From a virus (Duplodnaviria > Heunggongvirae > Uroviricota > Caudoviricetes), in IMG/VR virus record IMGVR_UViG_3300028603_000027, positions 1 to 64,000 of that record: a stretch of 64,000 bases of DNA. One strand, 5' to 3'. Made by a program: the position numbers and the translations under genes. Below the pieces are notes generated by a model. It searched no databases and was not told the DNA's origin. It saw only the letters and a program-made list of their open reading frames with translations. This document shows, piece by piece, positions 1 through 61,983 of this stretch. Positions within the stretch are counted from its first letter, which is position 1; the number at the start of each line of letters is the position of its first letter.

Positions 1-221
1 TTCCCCCACAAGGAAATTACACTTCGGGCAATCCGGCTCAAACTTCTATTGCTTTGTTTAAAGAAGGTGCAGCAGAGGCTTTTCAGGCTAACTGGTATTG
101 GTCTTCAACAGAATATAATTCGTCGCATGGTTGGCTTCAGGGCTTCCACTTTGGTTATCAGAGCACCCGCTACAAGTCTGGTGCGCTCTGTGTTCGGGCC
201 GTTCGGCGTGTTCCAATCTAA
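1..221 (+). CDS. DGR target protein, 3' part (5' end outside window); C-type lectin/DUF1566-like C-terminus containing VR1
   Basis: Frame 3 is open from the window start to TAA 219-221. Translation ends ...NWYWSSTEYNSSHGWLQGFHFGYQSTRYKSGALCVRAVRRVPI, paralogous to the C-termini of ORFs 28997-29383 and 35736-36131. The last 84 nt match TR 903-986 except at TR adenines. Confidence 0.75.
   Translation, partial: PPQGNYTSGNPAQTSIALFKEGAAEAFQANWYWSSTEYNSSHGWLQGFHFGYQSTRYKSGALCVRAVRRVPI
118..201 (+). repeat. DGR variable repeat VR1
   Basis: 84-nt alignment to TR 903-986 with about 20 substitutions, all at positions where the TR has A. Ends with the shared GC-rich tgttcgggccg. Confidence 0.85.
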
Positions 222-225
222 TTGC

Positions 226-256
226 TTTAGCAATTGATTGCAAATGTTTGTTATGT
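226..256 (+). other. Inverted repeat (hairpin/cruciform) just downstream of VR1
   Basis: caatctaattgc-ttta-gcaattgattg forms an 11-12 bp stem with one bulge, 5 nt after the target-gene stop codon. Confidence 0.4.
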
Positions 257-376
257 TCGGGCATTCTCTGTTTATTTGAGAGGTTCGGGCCTTAGAGGGG
301 AGAGGAGCTTTGTGCTCCTCTCGTTATTTTATTCACATATTTTGTATGTTTTTTAGCTAGGCAATTTATTGCCTTT

Positions 377-721
377 ATGTTGGAAATGTTGAAAAGTAAT
401 TTTGTTAAGTATTCTGTAGGTAAAGATAAGTGCTTGGATAAGTACAAGAGTGCTGTTGACTTTATAAGTTCTATTACACATATTGTTAAACGCACATCAT
501 TTCCACTAAAGATAGTGGTAGGAGAACCAATTATTCAGATGGGTTATGACATTTCTGTAGCTTTACAGGAGTATTATAACAAGGAAGATGAGTTTTTCTA
601 CATACCTTCTAAAGTGGATTTAAATGCGCGTTTACGTGTTGCGAAAGATTTGGGCATCCTGAAGGACAAGGATTATGCTCGAATTATATTGCTAGTTGAC
701 AATATTTACAAAGATTTGTAA
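377..721 (+). CDS. avd: Accessory variability determinant (Avd)-like small protein
   Basis: 114-aa ORF lying between the VR-bearing target gene and the TR/RT, the canonical target-avd-TR-RT order. Basic, helical-looking sequence; no direct motif evidence. Confidence 0.5.
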   Translation: MLEMLKSNFVKYSVGKDKCLDKYKSAVDFISSITHIVKRTSFPLKIVVGEPIIQMGYDISVALQEYYNKEDEFFYIPSKVDLNARLRVAKDLGILKDKDYARIILLVDNIYKDL

Positions 722-902
722 AATACGACGCTAGCAAAATCGGGAGCAAAACATAACTGAATATTTTGGTATTCTCCCTGTCGAAAGACACGGATAAGTT
801 GTTTAAAGCTTTAATTAGATGTTTCATTTAATTGCGGCCTTAAATGACAACTGATCGGAACTTCTAAATGTTGTTCTGATTGGTGTGTAATAGGATACAA
901 AC

Positions 903-986
903 ATTCGTCGAATGGTTGGAATCAGAACTTCAACAATGGTAATCAGAACAACAACAACAAGACTAATGCGAACTATGTTCGGGCCG
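903..986 (+). repeat. DGR template repeat (TR)
   Basis: attcgtcgaatggttggaatcagaac...ttcgggccg, about 31 adenines, AAC-rich in the target reading frame (codes SSNGWNQNFNNGNQNNNNKTNANYVRA). Three cognate VRs differ from it only at A positions. Confidence 0.85.
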
Positions 987-996
987 CAAAATATGG

Positions 997-2079
997 TTGT
1001 GTTTTATTTGTTGCGCCCTTGAGGGTGTATTTAAAGGGTTGATTTTGCAGCACGTACCTTGCGATATTGAATTTGAAGAGTTGGTGGAAGCTTACTTCGA
1101 TTGTCGGCGTAATAAAAGAACCACACACTCTGCTTTAGATTTTGAAATGAACTTAGAAGAAAATCTTCTACAACTCTATCATGAATTGAGAACAGGAACC
1201 TATGAGATTGGAAAATCTATATGTTTCGTCGTTAAAATTCCTAGAGTGAGGGAGATTTGGGCAGCAAACTTTAGAGATAGAATTGTACATCATTTGATAT
1301 ACAACAGGATGTCTCCGAAGTGGAATAGAAGATTTAGTGCTGATAGCTGTGCCTGTATTCCAGGCAGAGGAACGCTATACGGTGCGACAAGATTGGAAAA
1401 GCATATACGATCTTTCACAAATAATTGGGAAAAGGATTATTGGTATTTGAAGTGCGACTTGTCAAACTTCTTCGTATCAATAAAGAAGGATGTTTTGTGG
1501 TCTTTAATGGAGCCTTCCATTGAGGATGGTTGGTTAAAAGACATCACTAAGTTGGTGTTGTATAGTGACCCCACTAAAAACTTCACTCTCAATTCAAGAG
1601 ATTGGGAAGCAGAACTCGTTCCCGAGAGAAAGAGATTATGTCTAGCAGGAGAAAATACAGGCTTGCCTATTGGCAATTTAACGAGCCAATTCTTCGCTAA
1701 CATCTTGTTGAATGAGCTAGATAAATTTGCTAAACATACTTTGAAAGCTAAGAAGTATATCCGTTATGTTGATGATTGTATCATCTTAGCGGAAGACAAA
1801 GAAACGCTCATTGAAATGAAGGCGAAAATGGATGAATTTGTGAAGACGATTGGACTTTCGTTCAATCCGAAGAAATGTTTCATTCATAAGATAAACAGAG
1901 GAGTCAGCTTTGTGGGCCAAACTGTCTATCCTCATCGTCGTGTGCCTTTAAAGAACACTGTAGACAAATGCATTGAGAAAGCGATCACCTCTCCAGATTC
2001 TATTCCCTGCTTTATAGCTTATTTTGAACAAGCAGAAAAATCTTATAATTTAGTACAAAGGTTTTTGATAAACACGTAA
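997..2079 (+). CDS. DGR reverse transcriptase
   Basis: RT motifs are present: LPIGNLTSQFFANILLNELD (the DGR-specific IGxxxSQ signature) and YIRYVDDCIIL (YxDD catalytic box). It lies immediately 3' of the TR. Confidence 0.9.
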   Translation: MCFICCALEGVFKGLILQHVPCDIEFEELVEAYFDCRRNKRTTHSALDFEMNLEENLLQLYHELRTGTYEIGKSICFVVKIPRVREIWAANFRDRIVHHLIYNRMSPKWNRRFSADSCACIPGRGTLYGATRLEKHIRSFTNNWEKDYWYLKCDLSNFFVSIKKDVLWSLMEPSIEDGWLKDITKLVLYSDPTKNFTLNSRDWEAELVPERKRLCLAGENTGLPIGNLTSQFFANILLNELDKFAKHTLKAKKYIRYVDDCIILAEDKETLIEMKAKMDEFVKTIGLSFNPKKCFIHKINRGVSFVGQTVYPHRRVPLKNTVDKCIEKAITSPDSIPCFIAYFEQAEKSYNLVQRFLINT

Positions 2080-2104
2080 CTTTAATACTTGACAGAGAAA
2101 ATTT

Positions 2105-2749
2105 ATGAAATATGTACAATTCACTTATGTAGATGTGCAGACAGGGGTTCCTGTCTCTGAAACCCCCGCAGCGAACGGGCCTACTATTCCAGAGGGAATT
2201 ATCCCTACTTTTGATCTTCAAAACACTCGTTCCCAACAGGCACCTATTGTGTTTGGATTTATTCCCGACGAAGCAGAAGAGCTTTTTGACACTCTCCCTG
2301 AGTTTATCAGAGAAGTAGACGAAGATTCCTTCTTCTCCGCTTTTAAGGAAGAACTTAAAGAAAGAGCAAGAACAAAAAGAATTCAAATGGAACAAGGTGG
2401 GGTCATGGTAAATGATTCTGTCATTGGTACTACGATTGAAGATCAAAACCGTGTTACAGGTATGGCTACCACTTTAATGATTGACCCGGATATGGAGAGT
2501 ATTGACTTTGAATACTCTCCAGGGCAATGGATTAACATTTCCCGCGAAGTAGGGTTAGCTATTGGTGTAGCTGTTGCTCGACACGTGCAACACTGCTTCT
2601 CGTGGTGTCGTAATGTTCACGAACAAATTGATTCAATGGAAATTGATATTAACTCCTTAGAAAACGCTATGCCTATTTTGGAAGCTATCAATTCTTTTGG
2701 ACTCACTGACTCTACTCCCGAGGGCGAAGAGCCTACGGACGAAGAGTAA
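2105..2749 (+). CDS. Hypothetical acidic protein
   Basis: 214-aa ORF with an acidic C-terminus (EGEEPTDEE); no recognisable motif. Confidence 0.45.
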   Translation: MKYVQFTYVDVQTGVPVSETPAANGPTIPEGIIPTFDLQNTRSQQAPIVFGFIPDEAEELFDTLPEFIREVDEDSFFSAFKEELKERARTKRIQMEQGGVMVNDSVIGTTIEDQNRVTGMATTLMIDPDMESIDFEYSPGQWINISREVGLAIGVAVARHVQHCFSWCRNVHEQIDSMEIDINSLENAMPILEAINSFGLTDSTPEGEEPTDEE

Positions 2750-2784
2750 TTTACAAATAAATAATTAAATTTAGGAGAATATAA

Positions 2785-2963
2785 TGGCTACTTTTGTAGA
2801 CCCACGAGTGTTGAAGCCTATCACTGACCGACTCACAGGCGAAGCTCTTGAAGCAATTAATGCTGCACTTGATGCTGTAGCAGCTATCCCTTCTGCACCA
2901 GAGACAGGAACTTTCCATCTAGTCTCAACAGATGGCGTTCTTTCTTGGGAAGCGGTTGAGTAA
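2785..2963 (+). CDS. Small hypothetical protein
   Basis: 59-codon ORF (MATFVDPRVLKPITDRLTGEALEAINAALDAVAAIPSAPETGTFHLVSTDGVLSWEAVE) preceded by AGGAG. Confidence 0.4.
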
Positions 2964-3004
2964 TTAAGGGGCTTTGGCCCCTTCCCTCTTCTAGGGGAAC
3001 GTAA

Positions 3005-3589
3005 ATGAAAAGATTCATCACAAAAAAGCTCGTTGCTTTAGGTCTTTCCGCTTCTGCGGCCTTGTCAGCAGGATATTTGATTGTGCCTTGGGAAGGTTCC
3101 GTTAAAAATAAGAAAGGTGAACACGTAGCATATATTGACGCCGTAGGTGTCCCTACTGCTTGTTATGGACAAACAGGAAGAGATTTATACGGAAAGACAA
3201 TACGGAAAGGTATGATTTATTCAGAGCAAGAATGTTTAATCATGTTAGAAAAAAGTGTTAAACATTTTGAAAGTGTTGTAGACAGAAATGTTCGTGTGCC
3301 TTATGCATCTCCCTACCAAAAATCAGCACTAATTTCCTTCACCTATAATCTGGGAGAGGGGAATCTCCGTAGCAGTACACTCCTAAGACAATTAAACGCT
3401 GGACAGCACGAAGCAGCTTGTGAACAGCTTATACGTTGGGTGTATGCAAAGAAAAAGAAATTGAAAGGCTTGGTTGATAGGCGTTCCGAAGAAATGCTAT
3501 GGTGCATGGGGGATGTTCCTTATGAAGTTGAAATCACTTTCTCTGAAATCACGGAGATGGTAAGAGATTTGAATAAGGAGCCACTATGA
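3005..3589 (+). CDS. SAR endolysin, GH24 (T4/lambda-type) lysozyme
   Basis: The N-terminus LVALGLSASAALSAGYLIV is a weakly hydrophobic Gly/Ala/Ser-rich signal-anchor-release type segment. The lysozyme motifs YIDAVGVPTACYGQTG and ISFTYNLGEGNL follow. Confidence 0.8.
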   Translation: MKRFITKKLVALGLSASAALSAGYLIVPWEGSVKNKKGEHVAYIDAVGVPTACYGQTGRDLYGKTIRKGMIYSEQECLIMLEKSVKHFESVVDRNVRVPYASPYQKSALISFTYNLGEGNLRSSTLLRQLNAGQHEAACEQLIRWVYAKKKKLKGLVDRRSEEMLWCMGDVPYEVEITFSEITEMVRDLNKEPL

Positions 3590-3993
3590 AGTTTTTTTCT
3601 AATATAAAAGATAAGATTGCTGTTTCACTAATAGCTGTACTTTCAGTGATTTGTATATTCCTCTACGTTGGTTCTCTCAATCAATCTCACACTATCAACA
3701 AACAAGAGATTGAACTTTCTGCCCTAAGTGAACAGTTAAAAGAAGAAAGAATTCGTGTTAAAAATCTAGTGGCTCTCGCTCAAGAATACGATGAGATAGT
3801 AACTTCTCAAAAAGAAGACACGAAATCTTTACAGAAGGCGACACAAGATGTTATTCAAGGATTAAATAAAAGTAGAGGAAAATTAAATGAAGAAGGAAAA
3901 GATAGTGGGAGCGTTCCTCTTGATGATAATGTTATCGGGATGCTTTCCGACTTATGTGAAAGAGTACGTGGAAGTCCCTGCCCCAATCCCTAG
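3586..3993 (+). CDS. i-spanin (Rz-like)
   Basis: N-terminal transmembrane segment (IAVSLIAVLSVICIFLYVG) followed by a charged coiled-coil region. Sits directly after the endolysin, and its 3' end overlaps the next lipoprotein gene. Confidence 0.5.
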   Translation: MKFFSNIKDKIAVSLIAVLSVICIFLYVGSLNQSHTINKQEIELSALSEQLKEERIRVKNLVALAQEYDEIVTSQKEDTKSLQKATQDVIQGLNKSRGKLNEEGKDSGSVPLDDNVIGMLSDLCERVRGSPCPNP

Positions 3994-4159
3994 TTCCCTT
4001 GTTCAACATCCTTGTTCACCTGTTGGGCCGGGGGAAACAGTTGATGACCTCATGAGAGGATATGCCTTAAATACTTCCTGCGTTGGGGAGTATAAAATCA
4101 CAGTAGACGGAATTAAACAGTATAACGACAAACAGCGGGAGATGAGAGATGGACAGTAA
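3887..4159 (+). CDS. o-spanin (Rz1-like outer-membrane lipoprotein)
   Basis: Signal peptide with lipobox LLMIMLSGC, proline-rich mature part; overlaps the 3' end of the i-spanin in another frame. Confidence 0.5.
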   Translation: MKKEKIVGAFLLMIMLSGCFPTYVKEYVEVPAPIPSSLVQHPCSPVGPGETVDDLMRGYALNTSCVGEYKITVDGIKQYNDKQREMRDGQ

Positions 4160-4484
4160 TGTGAGTGCGAACAGCGTAAACTCCCGTATTAATAAATTTG
4201 TAGAGAAGTTTGCTGTGTGGATTATCGGTGCGTTATTTTCGCTAGGCGTAGCGGGATGGAATAAGATGGATTCTGATATTGACAGGCTTGAGGAAAGAGT
4301 AGCGTTCTTGTATCAAGATAAAGTAAGCCGTCAAGAGTTGAAGGATGAAATGTTTCTTTTACGCACTCAGATCGAAAGAGACAATCAGGATATGCGTAGA
4401 GGGCAAGAGCAACTACGTGGAGATATTCTCAGCAGACTGGAACTTATCTTGAAGTTAGGAACTCCCCAAAAGATAGTGCAGTAG
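4149..4484 (+). CDS. Membrane protein with coiled-coil (possible holin/antiholin or lysis regulator)
   Basis: One predicted TM segment (FAVWIIGALFSLGVAGW) plus a charged helical C-terminus; position at the end of the lysis cassette. Confidence 0.35.
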   Translation: MDSNVSANSVNSRINKFVEKFAVWIIGALFSLGVAGWNKMDSDIDRLEERVAFLYQDKVSRQELKDEMFLLRTQIERDNQDMRRGQEQLRGDILSRLELILKLGTPQKIVQ

Positions 4485-4595
4485 GTAGCTCTAATCTTAA
4501 TTAAACAAACCTGTAAGGCATTTAAATATTGTTTTAAGGGAAGTGTATCAAATAAACAAAAGAGGGCTTAAAAAGCCCCTAAGACTCTCCTAGTT

Positions 4596-4637
4596 TTTAT
4601 AGCCCCACGCCTTTTGGTGTTGGGGCTTTTTCTTTTT
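4596..4637. terminator. Bidirectional rho-independent terminator
   Basis: agcccca-cgccttttggtgt-tggggct stem followed by tttttcttttt, between convergent genes. A second hairpin, gggcttaaaaagccc, lies at about 4565-4579. Confidence 0.6.
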
Positions 4638-4830
4638 ATAAAGAAATAAAAACATGAGTCAACTGCCGTGACTCTCTTCGTAGACCACTGTTAAACATTT
4701 CTTCTGCTACAGCGTCCCGGACATTAACACCCTTACGAAGCAAATCCAATAGGACAACACGCATGTCTTCATCCTCTGCTGCAAGCTTAACAACCGTTTT
4801 CTTATTCTTATCAAAACAATAAATTCTCAT
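4636..4830 (-). CDS. Hypothetical protein
   Basis: ORF only. Confidence 0.3.
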   Translation of the reverse strand: MRIYCFDKNKKTVVKLAAEDEDMRVVLLDLLRKGVNVRDAVAEEMFNSGLRRESRQLTHVFISL

Positions 4831-5114
4831 CAGTAAAATCCTCCTTCTCCATCGTATTGGCCGGGATGTCCGTTATACCCTAAGTCGTGCCATTCATCCA
4901 TGTCCATCGAATGTTCAGATCGTCTTTTCCTGTAGGTTAAAGTGTCTGCCATTTTAAATAAAACTAATAATTGTTTATCAGAAATTCTGTTTTGTTTCAA
5001 AACATTTTTTACAAACTCAAGATCACTAGAGCGTCCACCCAATAGGGTTATTCTTTCACAAAGTAATTTGGGAGTTGTTGCCCTAATATTGTCGTCCAAG
5101 CTGAACCATTTCAT
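4830..5114 (-). CDS. Hypothetical protein
   Basis: ORF only. Confidence 0.35.
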   Translation of the reverse strand: MKWFSLDDNIRATTPKLLCERITLLGGRSSDLEFVKNVLKQNRISDKQLLVLFKMADTLTYRKRRSEHSMDMDEWHDLGYNGHPGQYDGEGGFY

Positions 5115-5528
5115 TTTATTTTCCTAAATAGAAGATTTTCCTATAGAAAATAAACTTCACGTTTAGAAATTTCGATGACAGGAATATTTGCTACATCACA
5201 AGCAAATATCCAACGGTGAAGCTCTCTGTTGCTGAACAAATGTTTTTCGTAGAGTTTCCCGTTAGGAAGAAGAATGGTGAGCACCATTGACGTATAGATC
5301 ATATAAATTCCTTTAAAGTGAATGTAGAAGAATTGTAGAAGTGAAAACGAAAGTTTGCAAGTTGTACTTTTGCAACAACTATTGTTTTTTAAACAAGAAT
5401 TAGCTTGACAAAGAAAAATAAGTATGATATACTATTTAAAATTTTCCGACAGGGAAATTTACTAATATTCCTCCATTCTGTCTCATTTCTATTTTGATAT
5501 GTACAAATACAACATATCCCCAAAAGGA

Positions 5529-5558
5529 GTTGACAAGAAGATCATCAAAGACTATGAT
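5529..5558 (+). promoter_or_regulatory. Sigma70-like promoter upstream of the Prs-like/NAMPT-like operon
   Basis: TTGACA, a 17-nt spacer, then TATGAT, 30 nt upstream of the 5589 start. A second consensus-like promoter (TTGACA-17-TATACT) lies at 5406-5434. Confidence 0.45.
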
Positions 5559-5588
5559 GGCCTCCTATCCAACTTCTAAGGAAAAGGA

Positions 5589-6380
5589 ATGAGTAACGTC
5601 TACGTTTACAAAACTGATTGTAAAGTCTTTAACTTCCCTGCGGGAGAAGTATCTGTTCGTCTGAATGAAGATACTCTTCGGGATGTCTCAACTATTGTTG
5701 CCCATATTCAAAATAGCGATAATATCATGCAAATGCTACTTTTGAATGACGCCCTTCGTCGTGCGGGTCAACAAAAAATCAACCTACTCATTCCTTATGT
5801 TCCTTATTCTAGACAAGACCGTGTATGTAATTCAGGTGAAGCCTTGAGCATCAAAGTGTTTTGTGATCTTGTAAATAGTTGCAATTTCAATTCTGTGTTC
5901 GTCATGGATTGTCACAGTGATGTCACGTTGGCTCTCCTTAATAATGTCCAACATGCTCATCAAAGTGTTGTATTTAGCCAGATTGAAAAAGATTGGGCTA
6001 ATACAATAATTATTTCCCCTGATGCAGGTGCTTTGAAAAAGGCAGAACAATTTGCTAAAGATCGGGGAGCCAAGGGTGTAGTGGTAGCTAATAAGAAACG
6101 TAATGTCTCTACAGGAGACATAGAATATGTAAGACTAACAGAGTCCGTAGCTAATGAAGATGTGTTTGTCGTAGATGATATTTGTGAGGGAGGAGGGACA
6201 TTTCTTCTCCTTGCAGAGCAACTACAAGAAGCCAAGAGTAAAGAAATTGCTGTAAGTCATGGAATTTTTTCTCGTGGAACGGAAGTTTTGACAAGTGTGT
6301 ACGATAGGGTGTACACTACAAACAGTTATCACCCTGAGTTGGAATCCAAAGACAACCTTGTAGTGTTTAAGATTATTTAA
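5589..6380 (+). CDS. PRPP-synthetase-family pyrophosphokinase (Prs-like; candidate ADPR-PP synthetase Adps of NARP1)
   Basis: PRPP-binding motif VFVVDDICEGGGTFLLL and a Prs-type N-terminal domain. At 263 aa it is shorter than housekeeping Prs and is translationally coupled to a NAMPT homologue. Confidence 0.7.
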   Translation: MSNVYVYKTDCKVFNFPAGEVSVRLNEDTLRDVSTIVAHIQNSDNIMQMLLLNDALRRAGQQKINLLIPYVPYSRQDRVCNSGEALSIKVFCDLVNSCNFNSVFVMDCHSDVTLALLNNVQHAHQSVVFSQIEKDWANTIIISPDAGALKKAEQFAKDRGAKGVVVANKKRNVSTGDIEYVRLTESVANEDVFVVDDICEGGGTFLLLAEQLQEAKSKEIAVSHGIFSRGTEVLTSVYDRVYTTNSYHPELESKDNLVVFKII

Positions 6381-6393
6381 AGGAGAAATAAAT

Positions 6394-8106
6394 ATGTTCA
6401 ACCCACTTCTGATGGTAGACGGCTACAAGCTTGGACACCACAACCAATATCCTGAAGGGATGACTTACCTGTTTAGCAATTTTACAGCGCGAAGCAATAA
6501 AAACTTCAAGAAGATCGCGGCAGCGGAATTCTTAGATGATTTTGTAGTGGTATTTGGCACACAAGCTACAGTGTCCTATCTGAATGAGGTGTGGGAGAAG
6601 GAATTCTTTTCTAAGAAGAAAGAAGCTGTTGTAGATGAGTTTGCAAACATCGTTCGTATGTTTTTGAACGACAATTCTTTTACGGTGGAACATGCAGAAG
6701 CCTTGCACGATCTAGGCTATCTTCCAATTAAATTTCACTCTTTGAAAGAAGGGACTCTGTGTAAAGTGAATGTACCGTTCTTTACTTTGGAAAACACTCA
6801 CCCTGATTTCGCTTGGCTTGTCAACTACATTGAAACACAATTGTCTGCGATGCTTTGGAAGCCGATTACTTCAGCAACTATCGCACGGCATTATAAAAAG
6901 ATTTTGAACCGATATTACGAAAAGACATGCGACAATAAAATGGGCATGGAATTTATGGTGCATGATTTTTCGATGCGTGGCTTGTCTAATGTTTTTGATG
7001 CACATTTTTCTGGAATGGGCCATTTGACTTCTTTCAGCGGGAGCGATAACATTCCTGCTTTGGTTGGGGTGCGTAAATACTATGGATGGGACATTGAAAA
7101 AGAATTTTTAGCGGGTGGTGTTCCCGCAACAGAGCATTCAGTTACTTCCAGCAACATTCAATCCTTTGTTGTGACAGAAGGATGTGATGAACTTGAGGCT
7201 GAAAAGAAAACAATTGAATATTTGATTTCAAAATATCCCTCTGGTTTTCTTTCGTATGTTTCAGATACGTATGATTATTACGGAGTAATTTCAGAGGTGT
7301 TGCCATCTTTAAAAGACAAATTGATGGCTCGGGAAGGGAAATTTGTTGTTCGCCCTGACAGCGGTAATCCTATAGATATCATTTGCGGTTTGGATATTCC
7401 TACTGTAGGCGATTCCACAGCCGCTGCTTGGAATTTGTACGATCAAGTGTCGTGTGATACGCCGCACGGTGAACGTGGAGAGGATATTGTCTCAGGTGTA
7501 TTTCTAATCAACGGAGAATATCGTAACATCAAAATTGTAATTGATTGGAATCGTTACGACAAACAGTATTATTACACAGACGGTTATGAAATTATTTCAG
7601 ATGAAGTGGTTTCTCTGACACCGGAGATGAAGGGGTCGCTGCGTTGTTTGTGGGATGCCTTTGGCGGTACACTGAATGAAAAGGGTTATATGGTATTGGA
7701 TTCCCATATTGGAATTATCTATGGAGACAGTATCACCCCTCAGAGAATGCACGAGATTCTTGAGCGTATGAAGCAAATGGGTTTTGCTGCATCTAATGTT
7801 GTGTTCGGGGCAGGAAGTTTCACATATCAATATACGACACGAGATACCTTTGGCATGGCAATGAAGGCCACATATTGCGAAGTAAATGATGTTCCTGTCA
7901 AGTTGTTTAAAGACCCCAAAACAGGAGACGGCAGTAAGAAGTCTGCTAAGGGGATGTTGGTTGTTCAAGACGGTGTATTGGTGGACGACATGGTGTATGG
8001 AGAGTATTTGGGTCAAAAGAACAACTTGGAAGAAATCAATTCTACTCCTAAAGACACATTCGACGTAATTCGTCAACGGATTAACGAGGGATTAAATGCA
8101 AGTTGA
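6394..8106 (+). CDS. Nicotinamide phosphoribosyltransferase family protein (NadV/NAMPT-like; candidate Namat of NARP1)
   Basis: N-terminus MFNPLLMVDGYKLGHHNQYPEGMTYLFSNFTARS is the typical NAMPT start; 570 aa; the start codon is 14 nt after the Prs-like gene. Confidence 0.8.
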   Translation: MFNPLLMVDGYKLGHHNQYPEGMTYLFSNFTARSNKNFKKIAAAEFLDDFVVVFGTQATVSYLNEVWEKEFFSKKKEAVVDEFANIVRMFLNDNSFTVEHAEALHDLGYLPIKFHSLKEGTLCKVNVPFFTLENTHPDFAWLVNYIETQLSAMLWKPITSATIARHYKKILNRYYEKTCDNKMGMEFMVHDFSMRGLSNVFDAHFSGMGHLTSFSGSDNIPALVGVRKYYGWDIEKEFLAGGVPATEHSVTSSNIQSFVVTEGCDELEAEKKTIEYLISKYPSGFLSYVSDTYDYYGVISEVLPSLKDKLMAREGKFVVRPDSGNPIDIICGLDIPTVGDSTAAAWNLYDQVSCDTPHGERGEDIVSGVFLINGEYRNIKIVIDWNRYDKQYYYTDGYEIISDEVVSLTPEMKGSLRCLWDAFGGTLNEKGYMVLDSHIGIIYGDSITPQRMHEILERMKQMGFAASNVVFGAGSFTYQYTTRDTFGMAMKATYCEVNDVPVKLFKDPKTGDGSKKSAKGMLVVQDGVLVDDMVYGEYLGQKNNLEEINSTPKDTFDVIRQRINEGLNAS

Positions 8107-26945: not shown

Positions 26946-27281
26946 ATGCAACCTACTGAAGAACAAGTTGTTAACAAGTGGATTTCACTAAAGAACAGTG
27001 CAGCTAGTCGAAAATTGAAATTTGATTTGACCGTTCTTTCGGTTAGAAATCTTCTACGAGCAGAAAAATGTTTTTATACAGGCGTTAGCTTTAATTCTAA
27101 GATGAGGGGTTTAGGTAAAACAATAGATCGGATAGACCCTAATAAGGGGTATGTCAGAGGGAATGTGGTAGCGTGTACAGATGGGTACAATCAAGCTAAA
27201 GCCCAATGGGAGAAGCTAGATAAGAAAGGTGTAAGAGCCATGATTAGACAGTTGAAAATTATTGAGGAGAGAATGAAATAA
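26946..27281 (+). CDS. Hypothetical protein
   Basis: ORF preceded by the promoter TTGACA-17-TATAGT at about 26876-26905. Confidence 0.4.
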   Translation: MQPTEEQVVNKWISLKNSAASRKLKFDLTVLSVRNLLRAEKCFYTGVSFNSKMRGLGKTIDRIDPNKGYVRGNVVACTDGYNQAKAQWEKLDKKGVRAMIRQLKIIEERMK

Positions 27282-27595
27282 TGTACAAGCTTTTTATAGA
27301 TGATGAGAGATTTCCAATCGACCCTCATTGGTTTGTAGCCAGGAATTCTTTTGAAGCAATCAAAGCCATAGACCTTTACGGCATCCCTCAAGAAATAGCT
27401 TTTGACCATGATTTAGGTGGACAGGATACGGCTATCATCTTTATAAATTGGTTGGAAGACAAGTTGGTAGAAGGGGTGTATAATCTTCCTCAAGGCTTCA
27501 TTTGGAGTGTACACAGTCAGAATCCAATTGGGGCTAAAAACATACAGGCACGAATGGAAGACCTAGCTGATTATTTTGGAGAAAAGCATGTCTAG
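27281..27595 (+). CDS. Hypothetical protein
   Basis: ORF only. Confidence 0.4.
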   Translation: MYKLFIDDERFPIDPHWFVARNSFEAIKAIDLYGIPQEIAFDHDLGGQDTAIIFINWLEDKLVEGVYNLPQGFIWSVHSQNPIGAKNIQARMEDLADYFGEKHV

Positions 27596-28860: not shown

Positions 28861-28996
28861 CAAACCATTGTTTTAAAAAGATTGTGGAAAAATAGATACA
28901 CTGTCATATAAGTTGTTGCCAACAAGAAAAATGATGGTATAATTCTAGACATTGGTGGTGAGATTTATGTTTATGAAATTTTTAAGGAGAAAGAAA

Positions 28997-29383
28997 ATGT
29001 CCAATATCGAACTCGTGAAGGATGACGTAGCGTATGTGAATGGCAAGGCTTACAAGCTGGTTCCTATTCCTACAGAGAAGATTTTTATTGGCGAAGTAGA
29101 CGGTAAAAAGTATTACCTTGGCCCTGAGGCTGATCGTCAAATGAATTGGGAGCAGGCTAAGAAGTGGGTCGCGTCGGCTGGCGGTCAACTGATGCCACGA
29201 GAAGTAGGCGTTCTTGCATTCAAAAAGGCTGAAATCCGCAAACAATTTCGTACCGATGATTGGTACTGGCTTGAAGATGAGTACAGTTCGTCGCATGGTT
29301 GGATTCAGTACTTCTACAATGGTAGTCAGGGCTACAGCACCAAGCCTGATGCGTTCTATGTTCGGGCCGTCTTCGTTGAATAA
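28997..29383 (+). CDS. Remote DGR target 2: small C-type-lectin/DUF1566-like protein with C-terminal VR2
   Basis: MSNIELVKDD... start after AAGGAGAAAG. The motif WEQAKKWVASAGGQLMPREVGVLAF is DUF1566-like. The C-terminus SSSHGWIQYFYNGSQGYSTKPDAFYVRAVFVE is encoded by VR2. Confidence 0.75.
   Translation: MSNIELVKDDVAYVNGKAYKLVPIPTEKIFIGEVDGKKYYLGPEADRQMNWEQAKKWVASAGGQLMPREVGVLAFKKAEIRKQFRTDDWYWLEDEYSSSHGWIQYFYNGSQGYSTKPDAFYVRAVFVE
29286..29369 (+). repeat. DGR variable repeat VR2
   Basis: 84 nt aligned to TR 903-986; all mismatches are at TR adenines. Confidence 0.85.
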
Positions 29384-29401: not shown

Positions 29402-29518
29402 ATGAGTGTAGTGTTTACGCTTACAGGCGCAACAATTTTTGTGGCCCTAGTGATTTATGGGGTTAAACAATTGGTTTCTAACGTCAAGTTTAAAGGAGAT
29501 GACGATAATGCAAATTAA
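29402..29518 (+). CDS. Small single-TM peptide upstream of SPFH gene
   Basis: MSVVFTLTGATIFVALVIYGVKQLVSNVKFKGDDDNAN, about 38 aa. Short and speculative. Confidence 0.25.
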   Translation: MSVVFTLTGATIFVALVIYGVKQLVSNVKFKGDDDNAN

Positions 29519-30368
29519 AAATATCATTGCAAGTGTTGTTCTGGCAATTGTAGCCATCATTGGTCTTACTATTGGTTTGGGCAGTTGGTATACCGTGGAT
29601 GAAGGGGAACGTGCTGTTACGCTTTCATACGGTAAGGTGTCAGGCTCGGCAGAGCCAGGGTTTCACTTCAAGATGCCTTTCGTGGAAACTATCGAACGTG
29701 TAAGTGTACGAGCACATACGGTAAGGTTCGATACAGTAGAAGCATACAGCCGTGACCAACAACCTGCCACGCTTGCAATCAGTGTTACATATCGCATTCC
29801 AGCAGATAGCGTAGAATCCCTGTACACCATGTACGGTAATCGTCAGAATATGCAAGGCCGTGTAATTGACCGAAAGCTTCCAGATGAAGTGAAGAATGTG
29901 TTTGGACAATACACAGCTATCCGGGCCATCCAAGAACGTGCTTCTCTTGTTATTGGTATTAATGAGGCTCTACGAAAGAGTGTAGAGGGACAGCCCGTTA
30001 TTATTGATAGTGTTCAAGTAGAAGAGATTGCTTTTTCAGATGCTTATGAACAATCTGTTGAACAGCGTATGAAGGCAGAGGTGGAAGTGTTTACACGAGA
30101 ACAAAACCTGAAAACAGAGAAAATCAACGCAGACATTGCTGTTACGCAGGCTAAGGGTCGTGCCGATAGTGCGCTTGCTGAGGCAGAAGCTCAAGCAAAA
30201 GCTATTAAGCTGAAGGGTGAAGCTGAAGCTCAAGCAATTCGTGAACGAGGTGATGCTCTTCGCCAGAATAGCCAGCTTGTTGATCTGATTGCAGCAGAAC
30301 GTTGGGATGGTTCACTCCCTGCCACTATGGTTCCTAACGGTGCTCTTCCTTTTGTGAATGTTCGTTAA
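29508..30368 (+). CDS. SPFH/Band-7 (HflK/flotillin-like) membrane protein
   Basis: N-terminal TM (IIASVVLAIVAIIGLTIGL), an SPFH core starting YTVDEGERAVTLSYGKV, and a C-terminal Ala/Glu coiled-coil AEAEAQAKAIKLKGEAEAQAIRERG. Confidence 0.65.
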   Translation: MQIKNIIASVVLAIVAIIGLTIGLGSWYTVDEGERAVTLSYGKVSGSAEPGFHFKMPFVETIERVSVRAHTVRFDTVEAYSRDQQPATLAISVTYRIPADSVESLYTMYGNRQNMQGRVIDRKLPDEVKNVFGQYTAIRAIQERASLVIGINEALRKSVEGQPVIIDSVQVEEIAFSDAYEQSVEQRMKAEVEVFTREQNLKTEKINADIAVTQAKGRADSALAEAEAQAKAIKLKGEAEAQAIRERGDALRQNSQLVDLIAAERWDGSLPATMVPNGALPFVNVR

Positions 30369-30914: not shown

Positions 30915-31829
30915 ATGCAAAGTGTTGACATCAACGGGAAGAAATATATTCTCGCAGAACAGGAAGGGATGATTAACATCACCTCTCAAAGCAAGAAAGA
31001 AATAGAAAGGCTTGAAGCTTCTTTTTGTACGGATATTGTGCCGTGCCTCGCAGAAGCCAATGCTGTATTGGCAGGCGGCGCTCTCACAAGTCTTTTTACT
31101 AACAAAGAAGTAAATGATTACGACATTTATTTTAAAAACGTAGAAGGCTTTCAAAGTATTATTAATGATATTTATGACACTCCTGAAAGCGGAAGCGTCT
31201 TGAGCAGTTATGATGTCATAGTAAATTTTGCCACTGATCGGAGTATCCTCTGCAAAGAGAAGTGGAGCGAAAATGCGATTCAATTCATCGTTTATAAAAT
31301 GTTCCCCGACATTCAAGACATTTTTAATGCTTTTGATTTTACTGTTAATATGTGTGCTTACGATTTTGCAACACAACAGATGTGGGCGCATCCAGATTTC
31401 TTGAAACACTGTTCACAGCGTTACCTCTCCTTTAATGGGAGAACAGATTATCCTGTTGTGTCAGCACTTCGGGTAATGAAATATACAGAACGAGGCTATA
31501 CAATATCTAAAGCAGAAATGCTTAGAATTCTCTTCACTATTGCAGCTAAGGAATATAAAGATTGGCAGAGTGTGAAAGAAGAAGTAGGTAGTATGTACGG
31601 AATCCCTGTTGACAAGCTATTTGACGAAACAAAAGAATTTAATCTGGAAGAAGTAGTGCTGCAACTGAACAATTGCGTAGCGTTAGACAAACCTAGGGTT
31701 ATGGCAGAAGCTTACGACACTAAAGATTTGGCGACGAAGTTCCCGCATCTTTTAGATCAAAAGTGGGCAGAAAATAATAACTTTTGGTGGGCGAAAGAGG
31801 CGTATGGGCAAGAACAAGTTCACCTCTAA
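30915..31829 (+). CDS. Pol-beta-superfamily nucleotidyltransferase domain protein
   Basis: The hG[GS]x9-13Dh[DE]h pattern is matched by AGGALTSLFTNKEVNDYDIYF. Confidence 0.4.
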   Translation: MQSVDINGKKYILAEQEGMINITSQSKKEIERLEASFCTDIVPCLAEANAVLAGGALTSLFTNKEVNDYDIYFKNVEGFQSIINDIYDTPESGSVLSSYDVIVNFATDRSILCKEKWSENAIQFIVYKMFPDIQDIFNAFDFTVNMCAYDFATQQMWAHPDFLKHCSQRYLSFNGRTDYPVVSALRVMKYTERGYTISKAEMLRILFTIAAKEYKDWQSVKEEVGSMYGIPVDKLFDETKEFNLEEVVLQLNNCVALDKPRVMAEAYDTKDLATKFPHLLDQKWAENNNFWWAKEAYGQEQVHL

Positions 31830-32217
31830 CCTGAAGATACAATACCTTCAAAATAAAGGACGCAGAGCATTGTTTTCTTTGTTAGAGGGGTTCACATTCT
31901 ATTCAGACGATATGCTAGCGGGACAGCGGGTTTGGGTGGATGTTCCCGCAGGGTTTGTATCTGATGGCGCTTCGACACCTCGTTGGACATGGATATTGTT
32001 CCCGCCTTGGGCAGATTATGGTCAAGCGTGTGTTTTACATGATTTCTTACTAGAAAAGAAAACATACACAGACGGCATAAATACTTTTAAAGCAACAGCC
32101 AAGCAAACAGATATTGTTTTTAAAGAAGCTTTAAATGTGTTGAAAGTTGCCCCTTGGAAAGTATTTTTGATGTATAATGGTGTACGTGTTTGGAACATCT
32201 TTAAAGGAAGGTATTGA
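31804..32217 (+). CDS. DUF1353-like protein
   Basis: VDVPAGFVSDGASTPRWTWILFPPWADYGQACVLHDFL resembles the DUF1353 core. Confidence 0.35.
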   Translation: MGKNKFTSNLKIQYLQNKGRRALFSLLEGFTFYSDDMLAGQRVWVDVPAGFVSDGASTPRWTWILFPPWADYGQACVLHDFLLEKKTYTDGINTFKATAKQTDIVFKEALNVLKVAPWKVFLMYNGVRVWNIFKGRY

Positions 32218-35554: not shown

Positions 35555-35735
35555 GGGGTTGACAAGTTAAATTTAACACTCTACAATAGCTTTACATTGA
35601 ACGAAACACAAAAGGGTAGGACATGCGGAAGATCACACAAGAAGCAATAAACGCCTTTATGAGCGGGAATGCTTATAATAACGGGAATACAAGGGTTGTT
35701 GGATTGATAAACACACTTTCAAAAAAGGAAACATC

Positions 35736-36131
35736 ATGCAAGCAAAAACAATCATTATTGACGGCGTAGAATACAGCCTTACCCCTGTTAACCAAAACGG
35801 ATTTATCGGAGAGGTGAACGGCAAGCGTTATTATTTGGGGCCGGAAGCAGACGAACAGATGACACAGGAAGAAGCCCGCGATTGGTGCGCTTCCCTGGGT
35901 GATAATTTCGAGCTTCCCTCACGTGTTGTAATGCTTTTGTGTTATAATAATAAGGAATTGCGTAAACAGTTTCAGACTGATGATTATTACTGGACAAATG
36001 ACGAATACGAGAATGATTCGTCGCGTGGTTGGTATCAGACCTTCACCAGTGGTCATCAGGGCTACCACAACAAGACTACTGCGAACTATGTTCGGGCCGT
36101 GCGTGTCGAGGAGGCGAAGCCCCAAAATTAA
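35736..36131 (+). CDS. Remote DGR target 3: small C-type-lectin/DUF1566-like protein with C-terminal VR3 (paralogue of target 2)
   Basis: Paralogous to 28997-29383 (GEVNGKRYYLGPEADEQM..., ELRKQFQTDDYYW). C-terminus SSRGWYQTFTSGHQGYHNKTTANYVRAV is encoded by VR3. Promoter TTGACA-17-TACAAT at about 35566-35595. Confidence 0.75.
   Translation: MQAKTIIIDGVEYSLTPVNQNGFIGEVNGKRYYLGPEADEQMTQEEARDWCASLGDNFELPSRVVMLLCYNNKELRKQFQTDDYYWTNDEYENDSSRGWYQTFTSGHQGYHNKTTANYVRAVRVEEAKPQN
36016..36099 (+). repeat. DGR variable repeat VR3
   Basis: 84 nt aligned to TR 903-986; all mismatches are at TR adenines. Confidence 0.85.
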
Positions 36132-50125: not shown

Positions 50126-51262
50126 TTATTCTAAAGGTTCCCACGTATTAGGGTCAACTTCTCGGATACGTAGACCGACAGGCTTGGTTGGGACTCCCGC
50201 ATCAGAGATGTCTTCGTATTCCACTTCAATCCATTTACCTACCACCAACTCCCGATTACCATACAGACGAAGGTTTACATTTGGGTCTGCATCTTTGCGC
50301 ATTTTAACCTTAAATTTAATTCCTTCTTTTAATGAGCAATGTAACACTGCTTCATTGTTTTTATCTTCTTCAGCTCGTTCAACATACGCTTCTACTGTGT
50401 CTCGATTTTTCAACTTCTGAGCATCATACGATCTTTTACCAAATTCGTAAAGCCCTTGTTGATTTCTCACTACAATACCTTCTTCTTTGTCAATCCCACT
50501 ACGAACGAAATGTTTCTGAACATCGCTCTCACTGAAAGCAAAGCTGCAAGGCAAAGCCACGAGACTGTTCAACGAAAACTGTCTGATAATGTCTGCGATA
50601 TAGCCTAGACGTTCGTTACGTGTAGAGAAGAATTCATTAGCCTTAGGAATATCATAAATCCAATACTGTAGGCGAGGAGTGTTTTCATTTTCCTTACGAA
50701 AGGCAGAAACAATTTCTTGGAGAGAAAGACCGCCTTTGTTCCTATTTCCTGCAAAAACTTCGCCATCCAATCCATACCAACTATCGCCTAGAATATCTTT
50801 CAGCTTTGCAATATCCTTTAAGATATGTTCCGGGATAGTGTAATCTTCTCCTGCTTTACTTTGGGCTTTTAAATCTGTATCCACCAAAAGTCGAAGACCA
50901 TCCAACTTCAGAGAGAAATAGCACGGATATGCAATTTTATGCCCTTGCTCATTGAAGTTTTGAAGCTTCATGGGCGTCATTTTTACTGAGGAGCGGGCTT
51001 CCTCTTCTGTTTTGAAATAACCCCGTTTGAGTTGTTTATCAAACTTGGCCTGCGCCTCTCGAACGGCCTGTTCTTCAGGGCTAGTTTCATTTGCCCTGCC
51101 TACGTTCTTCCCTTCTACTTTGATCGTCTTGGAAGTGATTTTTCCTCCTTTCATTCCATGACTCATGATGTAGGAATTTCCCTCTGCCTCAATTTCCCAA
51201 GTGCGAATTTCTCCTTTGCTTCCCTTAGAGTATAGAGTAGGCCATTGATTTGTCTCACTCAT
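50126..51262 (-). CDS. ATP-dependent DNA ligase
   Basis: Adenylation motif KLDGLR (KxDG); start set at MSETNQ after GGAGGTGAAA. Confidence 0.55.
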   Translation of the reverse strand: MSETNQWPTLYSKGSKGEIRTWEIEAEGNSYIMSHGMKGGKITSKTIKVEGKNVGRANETSPEEQAVREAQAKFDKQLKRGYFKTEEEARSSVKMTPMKLQNFNEQGHKIAYPCYFSLKLDGLRLLVDTDLKAQSKAGEDYTIPEHILKDIAKLKDILGDSWYGLDGEVFAGNRNKGGLSLQEIVSAFRKENENTPRLQYWIYDIPKANEFFSTRNERLGYIADIIRQFSLNSLVALPCSFAFSESDVQKHFVRSGIDKEEGIVVRNQQGLYEFGKRSYDAQKLKNRDTVEAYVERAEEDKNNEAVLHCSLKEGIKFKVKMRKDADPNVNLRLYGNRELVVGKWIEVEYEDISDAGVPTKPVGLRIREVDPNTWEPLE

Positions 51263-51572
51263 TTTCACCTCCGCCCACCAGTTCGTACTTTTCCAAGAAA
51301 TCTTCTTGATTCCATACAATAGCGTTATCGTTTTCATCAAAAACTAACATATCCCCAAGGAACAATACTTGCAGCACTCCGTTCTGGATAAAAGTAATTG
51401 TTATTGTATGCGTAGTATCTGCCAATTGCGGATTGTTTGCTACAACAGTTAAATAAACGCTAGTAGCCTTACTGTCGTATAGATTTTGAACGATGTCTCC
51501 AATAGCATCTGTATCTTCAAACAGTGCAGCTTCGACTACAGCATCTTTAGTTGTATAAGTTTGATAGTACAT
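51255..51572 (-). CDS. Hypothetical protein
   Basis: ORF only. Confidence 0.4.
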   Translation of the reverse strand: MYYQTYTTKDAVVEAALFEDTDAIGDIVQNLYDSKATSVYLTVVANNPQLADTTHTITITFIQNGVLQVLFLGDMLVFDENDNAIVWNQEDFLEKYELVGGGENE

Positions 51573-52923: not shown

Positions 52924-54204
52924 CTAAGACACTGTTTCCATGTCTACAACATCTGCAAGCCCTTCCATTACCCGGAAGGGGTAACTTTTGCATTTGAAAA
53001 ACTTGGGGTTTGTTTTATTAGTGTCTACTCTGACAATAATACCTTCTCCGATCATTCCTGAAAACTGATGGTCTTCTCCAAGATGTTCAGGACGCTCCGT
53101 GAGCTTTTCCACCAACTCACGCAAGGCTTCTTCGTCTCCGTTGTAGATCATCTGAGGGTGAACTTCAAATGTGGATTCAATTCCTCTATTCTCACACCAT
53201 TGTTCCATTTCCTTTTGAGACAAATCAATGTTTTTACCATCAACAGTTTGCCGGGTTATCCGGTAAATGTGCCACTTGTATTCACCTTCTGTGCAACCGT
53301 AGTGAAACACATTGGTATTACCATATTTCTCTGTGTACCGCTTGTCTTTCAAAGCTTTTATGTCTCCATTAGGCATAATAGCCTTACCGTTGACAAAACC
53401 AACAATTTCTCCATACACGGTCATTCCATCTTCTAACAGAGGATAGATTTCTCTACCTACCTCGAAACGGAAAGATTCACTTCCATGAAAACCTTCTTTG
53501 TATTCTTGTTGTAGCGTGACATTTCTACTTCCAACCACCATTTCATAATCCCCTGTAAGAGGAAAGATAGGCGCAATCTTGTTAATCAGTTTCTTCCAAC
53601 GAGGAAGTTCTACTGTTCTTCGCATTTTGGCTACTCGCATGGAAGTGCCATGCCGCTTGTTATGAAAAGAAAGAAGAGCACCCACAGGAATGTTGGCCGC
53701 AAAGTGTCGGAAGTTATCGGTGTCAGAATGTTTTTCAAACAAAGGAAAAGCGTTAGCCTTTACTGTCTTGGTTCTTTGGTTTCCTATTGCCTTTCGAGCC
53801 TGTTCAGTGATGTATTTTTGACAAATTTTAACACCATTGAGTTCATCAAATTCTGTTCCAAGTTGAGTAGGCACTTCTCCGCAGAATGCCAAGCTCTCCA
53901 GAGAAGAGAAATACCCGCTACTACGAACTTTCAAAAAGGGTTGTGCTCGTACTTTACGATTATCATCAAAGAAACCTTTCTTATCAGAATCAGCATTCTT
54001 TTCAGAATTACGGAAAAGATTATTTTCTCGGCAATATTGTTCTGAAAGTTGAACATCTACAGGAAAGAATACACCTATAAACCCTACAGGCAAATCCTTT
54101 GAGACAACGACAGGTTCACCAAGTACGTAGGCAATTTGAATTCGATCTGCACCGGGGATAGTCTCTACTTTATCAATCTTAGCGATAATTGCTTTGTGTG
54201 CCAT
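52924..54204 (-). CDS. Putative RNA ligase (Rnl2-like nucleotidyltransferase)
   Basis: FHNKRHGTSMRV fits the KxHGT[NS] motif I of Rnl2-type ligases. Lies between the Pnk-like kinase and a metallophosphoesterase. Confidence 0.4.
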   Translation of the reverse strand: MAHKAIIAKIDKVETIPGADRIQIAYVLGEPVVVSKDLPVGFIGVFFPVDVQLSEQYCRENNLFRNSEKNADSDKKGFFDDNRKVRAQPFLKVRSSGYFSSLESLAFCGEVPTQLGTEFDELNGVKICQKYITEQARKAIGNQRTKTVKANAFPLFEKHSDTDNFRHFAANIPVGALLSFHNKRHGTSMRVAKMRRTVELPRWKKLINKIAPIFPLTGDYEMVVGSRNVTLQQEYKEGFHGSESFRFEVGREIYPLLEDGMTVYGEIVGFVNGKAIMPNGDIKALKDKRYTEKYGNTNVFHYGCTEGEYKWHIYRITRQTVDGKNIDLSQKEMEQWCENRGIESTFEVHPQMIYNGDEEALRELVEKLTERPEHLGEDHQFSGMIGEGIIVRVDTNKTNPKFFKCKSYPFRVMEGLADVVDMETVS

Positions 54205-61786: not shown

Positions 61787-61862
61787 GTTGGTATAGATTA
61801 ACGGATAGATCACAACCCTTTCAAGGTTGCGGCGTAGGGTTCAACTCCCACTACCAACTCCA
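61787..61862 (+). tRNA. tRNA-Glu (anticodon TTC) candidate with weak T-stem
   Basis: Acceptor gttggta/taccaac, D-stem gatt/gatc, anticodon stem caacc/ggttg with loop ctttcaa, T-loop ttcaact, encoded CCA. The T-stem has only 3 clean base pairs. Confidence 0.35.
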
Positions 61863-61909
61863 AACATTGCTTATGTTAGGCATAAGCTGAAGTCAACTTA
61901 GGCTTCTTT

Positions 61910-61983
61910 CTTTCTGTAGCGTAATGGTAGCGTACTTCGTTTGGGGCGAAGTGGTCGAGGTTCGAGTCCTCGTGGAAAGACCA
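61910..61983 (+). tRNA. tRNA-Pro (anticodon TGG)
   Basis: Anticodon stem cttcg/cgaag with loop tttgggg, T-arm cgagg-ttcgagt-cctcg, acceptor ctttctg/tggaaag (two G-U pairs), encoded CCA. Confidence 0.55.

Follow-up and report, generated by a model that had tools for sequence, protein, structure and literature searches.

Locus and repeats

We analyzed a 64,000-nt stretch of DNA, positions 1 to 64,000 of the IMG/VR virus record IMGVR_UViG_3300028603_000027 (Caudoviricetes), which we call the window. A preliminary description, made from the sequence alone, had described its first 2,079 nt as a complete diversity-generating retroelement (DGR), with a target gene, an Avd gene, a template repeat (TR), as well as an RT (reverse transcriptase). 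All these elements were found, and two more variable repeats (VRs) were located outside the coordinates given there. The coding parts of the DGR and its repeats, including the boundary stretch resembling an initiation of mutagenic homing (IMH) site, are as follows.

1–221, plus strand: 3' end of target gene 1 (T1); the window opens inside the gene, and its last 221 nt are present
118–201, plus strand: VR1, in T1; differs from the TR at 20 positions, each a TR adenine
191–202, plus strand: IMH-like 3' boundary, GC-rich TGTTCGGGCCG followed by T, common to the TR and all three VRs
377–721, plus strand: predicted Avd-like accessory protein, 114 aa, pI 8.6, divergent
903–986, plus strand: TR, 84 nt, 31 adenines
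997–2079, plus strand: DGR-type reverse transcriptase, 360 aa when started at TTG 997
28997–29383, plus strand: target gene 2 (T2), 128 aa, stand-alone, lectin-like
29286–29369, plus strand: VR2, in T2; 15 mismatches to the TR, all at adenines
35736–36131, plus strand: target gene 3 (T3), 131 aa, stand-alone, predicted C-type-lectin fold
36016–36099, plus strand: VR3, in T3; 12 mismatches to the TR, all at adenines

Aligned over 84 nt without gaps, the TR and VR1 agreed at 64 positions and differed at 20 (seven A>T, seven A>G, and six A>C), and the similarity ended sharply at either side. About 20 differences, all on TR adenines, had been claimed; the count was exactly 20 of 20. Given 31 adenines per 84 nt of TR, the chance of such a result is about 2e-9. 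The whole window was scanned with the TR, its adenines wild-carded. Exactly four sites were returned, namely the TR, VR1, VR2, and VR3. Pooled over the three VRs, 47 of 47 mismatches were on TR adenines. One earlier statement had to be corrected: VR1 does not reach the end of its gene, as the T1 stop codon (219–221) lies 17 nt past the VR1 end. All three VRs end 11–29 nt short of a stop codon.

In the target frame, the TR translates as SSNGWNQNFNNGNQNNNNKTNANYVRA. What had been called a run of AAC codons consists of 12 AAY codons (7 AAC and 5 AAT). With the ACT and TAT codons included, the number of possible protein variants reaches about 2e15 for each target, and no stop codons arise. A count over all codons gives 4e17 variants; it takes in the two Q codons and the K codon as well, which are invariant. 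When six DNA alleles were compared, 27 of the 31 TR adenines were substituted at least once. The four invariant adenines belonged to three codons, CAG (Gln) twice and AAG (Lys) once, a pattern that suggests selection on scaffold residues.

The last mutable adenine is at TR position 73, and the boundary stretch GTTCGGGCCG, common to the TR and the VRs, comes after it. Directly past TGTTCGGGCCG, every VR has a T, whereas the TR (IMH*) has a C. The sequences diverge beyond this base, and the conserved IMH-like stretch is only about 12 nt long. Six copies of the 8-mer GTTCGGGC are present in the window (0.56 expected), four of them at the TR and VR ends. The two extra copies, at 255–262 and 283–290, are located between VR1 and the target-1 terminator, and the one at 255–262 sits in the context TATGTTCGGGC, the unmutated TR form. 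No extra copies were found in the relatives. The two in the window may be remnants of VR ends or further IMH-like sites.

Variation between assemblies of the same phage

Copies of the phage were located in other metagenome assemblies by exact-protein look-up. Two 87,318-bp contigs with differing start points came from different ENA samples. Of the others, one was a Logan contig of 58,775 bp and one an NCBI contig of 87,321 bp assigned to a bin named 'Gammaproteobacteria bacterium'. Because contigs of equal length were permuted differently, the genome is suggested to be about 87 kb long and circular or terminally redundant. One ENA contig begins 249 nt upstream of VR2 (window 29037); assemblers may break the circular genome at hypervariable regions through within-sample heterogeneity.

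VR polymorphism at TR-adenine positions had been set beforehand as a test of the DGR. The window was compared with the copies as follows.

Window against L001 (ERZ27247346): 10,721 nt compared, 17 differences, all in VR1
Window against L003 (ERZ27247346): 16,915 nt compared, 17 differences, all in VR2
Window against L004 (ERZ27247376): 10,793 nt compared, 18 differences, all in VR3

In total, 52 substitutions were present over 38.4 kb. All 52 were at TR-adenine positions of VR1–VR3, and the rest was identical. Assembly ERZ27247346 had the same VR3 as the window and a different VR1 and VR2, whereas ERZ27247376 had the same VR2 and a different VR3. Since the samples differed at different subsets of VRs, the three targets were rewritten independently. 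The same pattern was seen at the protein level. For T1, the 90% identity cluster contained VR1 protein alleles of this element, six of them full-length and one partial, besides one divergent member, and these alleles varied solely at residues from A-containing TR codons. The T1 copy on the NCBI contig (MCK9530513.1, 480 aa, partial) ends inside VR1 and carries another allele (NSSLGWLQNF...). With 52 differences confined to the TR-adenine positions of the VRs in otherwise identical genomes, the DGR is active in nature on all three targets.

The TR/VR pattern could also be left over from past activity of an element that is now dead. The Avd-like open reading frame (ORF) is truncated and highly diverged, and the hairpins past the VRs are weak, as would fit a relic. 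However, the RT ORF is intact and has its catalytic motifs, and genomes that are identical over 10–17 kb stretches nevertheless carry 17–18 substitutions per VR, every one of them at a TR adenine. Such VR-confined differences require very recent, repeated retrohoming. A relic was therefore rejected on the VR-only variation between samples and the intact RT, and we regard it as very improbable beside an element that is active on all three targets.

Reverse transcriptase

The RT ORF contains LPIGNLTSQFFAN and YIRYVDDC. It matched Pfam RVT_1 (E 3e-21) and phrog_1423 (E 2.5e-94). Among solved structures, the best match was the 328-aa bRT chain of entries 8ub7–8ube (E 5.7e-33 for the 8ub7 chain), which agrees with Brt of Bordetella phage BPP-1 in length and alignment. 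The next RT classes, retron and group II, followed at about 1e-10. BLASTP against BPP-1 Brt gave an E value of 6e-39 and 28% identity, with IGNLTSQ aligned to IGSLTSQ and YVDD to YMDD. These scores and motifs place the RT in the DGR clade, in agreement with the earlier assignment, which was based on the IGNLTSQ and YVDD motifs. Because the similarity to bRT begins at residue 26, the RT may instead start at TTG 1039 or 1045.

RT homologues number in the thousands. A scan of viral contigs with the single RT protein found nothing, and a scan with an RT alignment gave matches. The closest RTs in isolated phages were about 49% identical and belonged to 42–57-kb Burkholderia, Pseudomonas, and Shewanella phages. 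We fetched 165 loci via RT relatives. An A-biased TR/VR pair was present in 132 of them, with the A-rich copy just upstream of the RT; the remaining loci were mostly short contigs. In one relative (L091, 3393–4547), the TR is in frame and continuous with the RT ORF (MTQNSASNAWNQNFNNGNQNTNTKTNSNYVRK...), and gene callers annotate the TR as the RT N-terminus.

The RT scores also bear on another explanation, in which the repeats are ordinary paralogous C-terminal domains that diverged by point mutation or recombination and the nearby RT belongs to a retron or a group II intron. The RT did give weak, partial NCBIfam matches to the group II and retron models, all far under the cut-offs; it is much nearer to bRT than to any other RT class. 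Paralogous divergence is also difficult to reconcile with T1, which had no detectable similarity to T2 or T3 beyond the 84-nt VR-encoded stretch. Both the 47 TR/VR mismatches and the 52 between-sample differences were, without exception, on TR adenines. On this adenine-only substitution spectrum, we rejected both paralog divergence and an RT of the retron or group II kind, and we give the explanation virtually no credence. The repeats are best read as the TR and VRs of a DGR.

Accessory ORF

The 114-aa ORF at 377–721 is where the preliminary description had placed Avd, a small, basic protein known as a four-helix-bundle pentamer, and its location and length suit that protein. It had no direct match in Pfam, NCBIfam, PHROG, or the PDB. 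Two large protein searches returned only the ORF itself, with no homologue among 1.84 billion representative proteins. A BLASTP comparison with BPP-1 Avd gave no match, and a four-sequence profile compared with it by hhalign had a probability of 0.3%. A single-sequence AlphaFold 2 model had a pLDDT of 44. According to published surveys, 26% of DGRs have no avd (PMC5758913). The ORF could therefore be an unrelated small gene or a non-functional ORF, in which case the RT would work without an accessory protein or with another one.

The ORFs at the same place in related loci gave a different picture. The closest RT relatives (L006, L008, L010, and L091; 58–60% RT identity) have a 125–127-aa ORF there, and the three of these four that were scanned (L006, L008, and L010) all had weak Pfam bAvd matches (E 1e-6 to 6e-3). 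A hidden Markov model (HMM) of the four close syntenic ORFs recovered the window ORF at E 5e-6 as the top of 310 six-frame window ORFs. A second HMM was made from 113 more distant syntenic ORFs, without the close relatives. It also placed the window ORF at the top of the 310 (E 8.5e-6 over about 90 residues), and the next window ORF scored 0.25. Thus, in two independent profiles the 114-aa ORF was the single significant match. The window ORF and 54 syntenic ORFs were aligned, and Pfam bAvd matched 53 of these 55 sequences (best E 1e-22). This 55-protein profile gave only a marginal PDB match, 2gsc (E 0.04). Position, length, and orientation of the ORF are kept in all close relatives.

As profiles of syntenic accessory ORFs recover the window ORF and 53 of 55 family members match bAvd, we take it as a probable member of the Avd family, and we consider it unlikely that it is something else. 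It lacks the basic, Trp-containing C-terminal 15–20 residues or so of its relatives. The sequence comparisons thus point to a divergent, C-terminally short Avd-family protein, and the earlier Avd call is supported indirectly, through the syntenic profiles.

Target proteins

The N-terminal part of T1 is outside the window and had been expected to be a receptor-binding or tail-fiber part. T1 was recovered in full from the other copies (L001/L002, 8331–9845). The protein has 504 aa; its start lies 1293 nt ahead of the window. On these contigs, genes for TMP, Dit_like, Sheath_initiator, Baseplate_J, and Phage_Wedge1 proteins and then three further ORFs precede T1. Because it follows baseplate and wedge genes, T1 is in the position of a tail-fiber or receptor-binding gene, consistent with the expectation. 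It matched phrog_4245 (E 4e-34) over its C-terminal 190 residues or so. Matches to Pfam Lcl_C covered the VR in all three targets (E 1.1e-5 for T1, 0.015 for T2, and 1.9e-6 for T3), all under the gathering score of 34.9 bits. T1 is thus a putative tail fiber or receptor-binding protein with a C-terminal Lcl_C/DUF1566-type domain.

T2 and T3 are paralogs with 53% identity, and neither a signal peptide nor a lipobox was found in them. T3 was modeled with AlphaFold 2 from a nine-sequence alignment (pLDDT 84). The best PDB fold match of the model was the C-terminal domain of Legionella Lcl (8q4e; TM 0.66, E 2.5e-5), followed by many C-type lectin-like domains. Judged by these matches and the model, the targets belong to the DUF1566/Lcl_C ('CLec2, category d') class, the published class being compared by its description. 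The VR consensus reported for that class is ...GW.Q.F..G.Q....K....VR.V (PMC5758913).

T2 and T3 lie 28 and 35 kb downstream of the DGR cassette, outside the tail module. The two best sigma-70-like sites of an 8.7-kb stretch are at 28916–28943, before T2, and at 35559–35587, before T3, with 11 of 12 matches each. These candidate promoters suggest that T2 and T3 are independently transcribed units. Their neighborhood includes genes for RNR (ribonucleotide reductase), a Band_7 protein, a Gad2-family nucleotidyltransferase, and a DUF1353 protein. Near T2, a Band_7/SPFH protein (29508–30368), a 304-aa Gad2-type protein (30915–31829), and a DUF1353 protein (31870–32217) are encoded. The 304-aa protein matched Pfam Gad2 (Gabija anti-defense) as well as PHROG nucleotidyltransferases. 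In the corresponding region of one related phage contig (L171, 594–794), a Lar restriction-alleviation gene (Lar_restr_allev) is present. By these matches, the genes next to T2 may form an accessory or counter-defense neighborhood.

The ordinary reading of T2 and T3 is that they may be accessory adhesins or fiber-tip adaptors mounted on the virion. A different reading is that they are small cytoplasmic, early-expressed binders, diversified by the DGR into a hypervariable repertoire against intracellular host factors such as defense proteins, and not virion receptor-binding proteins. It draws on the lack of a signal peptide, the promoter-like sites, the setting among metabolism and accessory genes off the tail module, and their diversification in nature. 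We put it forward as a long shot and keep to the ordinary reading of virion-mounted adhesins or adaptors. In Pseudomonas phage PMBT3 (87 kb), a DUF1566-like small protein follows the tail genes; its genome layout is different, and no RT annotation was found in the 12.5 kb examined.

Hairpins, candidate promoter, and other non-coding features

Four non-coding features of the cassette are listed below.

214–240, plus strand: AT-rich hairpin, 12 nt past VR1; 5+6 bp, loop TTTA
300–330, plus strand: intrinsic-terminator-like hairpin and T-run past target 1; GC hairpin at 300–322, z = -5.65
696–724, plus strand: sigma-70-like promoter candidate, TTGACA-17-TAAAAT (11/12), within the end of the avd-like ORF
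765–798, plus strand: conserved non-coding motif between avd and TR, TTTGGTATTCTCCC..GAAAG..CGGATAAG

A hairpin past VR1 had been reported at 226–256. A hairpin was indeed present, but it was weak and about 12 nt off, at 214–240. As DNA it folds at -7.1 kcal/mol (z = -1.8); among 200 shuffled sequences, 11 folded equally well. It is a possible counterpart of the DGR target-site hairpin/cruciform. Small hairpins begin 10–13 nt past each VR. They are AT-rich or short (z -1.2 to -1.8), and none is individually significant. The relatives have hairpins of different sequence downstream of their VRs. A GC-rich inverted repeat (cruciform) past the IMH has been reported for 34% of DGRs only (PMC5758913).

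The candidate promoter at 696–724 could, by its match to the consensus, drive a TR–RT transcript; the site was not conserved in the relatives. The motif at 765–798 (TTTGGT.TTC.CCC...CGGATAAG) is about 105–140 nt upstream of the TR. Only the close RT subclade (L006/7, L008/9, L010, and L091) has it at the equivalent position, and it may be part of the DGR RNA. This motif, TTTGGT...GATAAG, was not a repeated phage promoter within the window. The region 722–1080 folds strongly as RNA (z = -5.3). A consensus fold of the avd–TR spacer in five relatives gave no supported structure and no covariation support, and an Rfam search of positions 1–2200 (E <= 1) found nothing.

Phage genome and gene neighborhood

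The carrier is an uncultivated tailed phage of about 87 kb with a contractile-tail-type baseplate module, and it probably infects a gammaproteobacterium. Megablast of window positions 1–6000 against 50,697 phage records found no match. Identity of its PolA to the closest counterparts, in the Pseudomonas phages ventosus and UAVern and in rV5-like phages, is at most 57%.

On the 3' side of the RT, genes for a DUF4376 tail-fiber-like protein, an endolysin, and lysis proteins are followed by NAD-salvage, DnaB, PolA, tRNA, Thy1, and RNR genes. The DUF4376 protein (2105–2749; phrog_10508 'tail fiber protein') is directly 3' of the RT, as in L006, L010, and L091. The DGR cassette thus sits in the tail-fiber module, between two fiber-related genes. 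The order target-avd-TR-RT-DUF4376 is kept in L006, L010, and L091; for L008, no DUF4376 match was recorded for the ORF after the RT.

Other genes of the window were also noted. Ribose-phosphate pyrophosphokinase-like and NAMPT/NAPRTase-like genes adjoin each other at 5589–8106, forming a phage NAD+ salvage pair. Five tRNA genes are present (13507–15215 and 61787–61983): an Arg-tct, Gly-tcc, and Leu-caa cluster, plus Glu-ttc and Pro-tgg. The cluster is directly 3' of a gene for a 461-aa phrog_850 'RNA-binding protein'. The window also encodes an RNA ligase (52924–54204), a DNA ligase (50126–51340), and a cREC_REC cyclic-phosphate receiver-domain protein (27281–27595). The tRNA, ligase, and cREC_REC genes hint at an RNA-repair module.

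Comparison with known DGRs

The element resembles the DGR of BPP-1 (mtd-avd-TR-brt) in many ways. The gene order is the same, with a VR at the target C-terminus followed by avd, TR, and RT. Both have adenine-specific mutagenesis, a GC-rich IMH-like VR end, and a receptor-binding-type target whose variable domain has a C-type-lectin fold, and the IGxLTSQ and YxDD motifs of the 28% identical RTs are conserved. There are also differences. The TR is 84 nt long (134 nt in BPP-1), and the TR–RT spacer is 10–58 nt (144 nt in BPP-1). The Avd-like protein has no detectable similarity to Bbp7. The target domain is of the Lcl_C/DUF1566 type, whereas that of BPP-1 is of the Mtd type, and there are three targets here, two of them non-adjacent. 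BPP-1 is a 42-kb temperate podovirus; the phage of the window is about 87 kb and has a contractile-tail-type baseplate and RNR, NAD-salvage, and tRNA genes.

The targets are closer to those of the Legionella pneumophila DGR (LdtA) and other CLec2 category d targets (PMC5758913). They match Lcl_C (formerly DUF1566), and the T3 fold matches Lcl. T2 and T3 are short DUF1566-only proteins, as are about half of the published category d targets, and the cassette has architecture B (avd-TR-RT) (PMC5758913). LdtA is a bacterial surface lipoprotein, whereas T2 and T3 are phage-encoded, have no signal peptide or lipobox, and match the Pfam family below the gathering score. The DUF1566/Lcl_C class makes up 14% of DGRs (Wu et al. 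2018, PMC5758913).

As in phage DGRs with non-adjacent targets (Wu et al. 2018) and in the Treponema denticola DGR, one TR serves several VRs in trans, tens of kb away on the same replicon. The T. denticola DGR has an HRDC accessory gene and FGE-type targets across the chromosome, whereas all targets here are in one phage genome, and the variation between samples documents activity at each of them. Phage-associated DGRs commonly have non-adjacent targets within 50 kb, and avd-TR-RT is the commonest DGR architecture (PMC5758913). Every structural feature of this DGR has a precedent.

Proposed mechanism

We are highly confident that the locus is a complete, currently active DGR with the architecture target-avd-TR-RT, in which one TR serves three targets. 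By analogy with BPP-1, the avd–TR–RT region would be transcribed, and the RT and the small Avd-like protein would reverse-transcribe the 84-nt TR RNA, placing random nucleotides opposite template adenines. In each target gene, the mutagenized cDNA would then take the place of the 84 homologous nt at the 3' end, with the GC-rich TGTTCGGGCCG(T) end marking the 3' boundary of the replacement.

Several points weigh against this interpretation. Each assembly represents one consensus per sample. We infer priming, cDNA synthesis, and integration all from BPP-1. The TR–RT spacer is much shorter than that of BPP-1, which leaves room for an Sp-like priming element only if it extends into the RT coding sequence. 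The hairpins downstream of the VRs are weak and AT-rich. The Avd-like ORF has no direct database match and fewer residues than the related proteins; at pI 8.6, it also falls about one standard deviation under the published Avd mean of 9.5 +/- 0.7 (PMC5758913).

Significance

The element has a known architecture and target class, and it leaves the general picture of DGR biology unchanged. It extends DGRs to a large tailed-phage lineage whose DNA polymerase is about 57% identical to that of ventosus and UAVern. Two points are of interest: homing with a very divergent, C-terminally short putative Avd, and the ligands of two small, non-structural-looking lectin-fold targets. The locus is a clean natural case of DGR activity and a convenient reference for multi-target, trans-acting phage DGRs.

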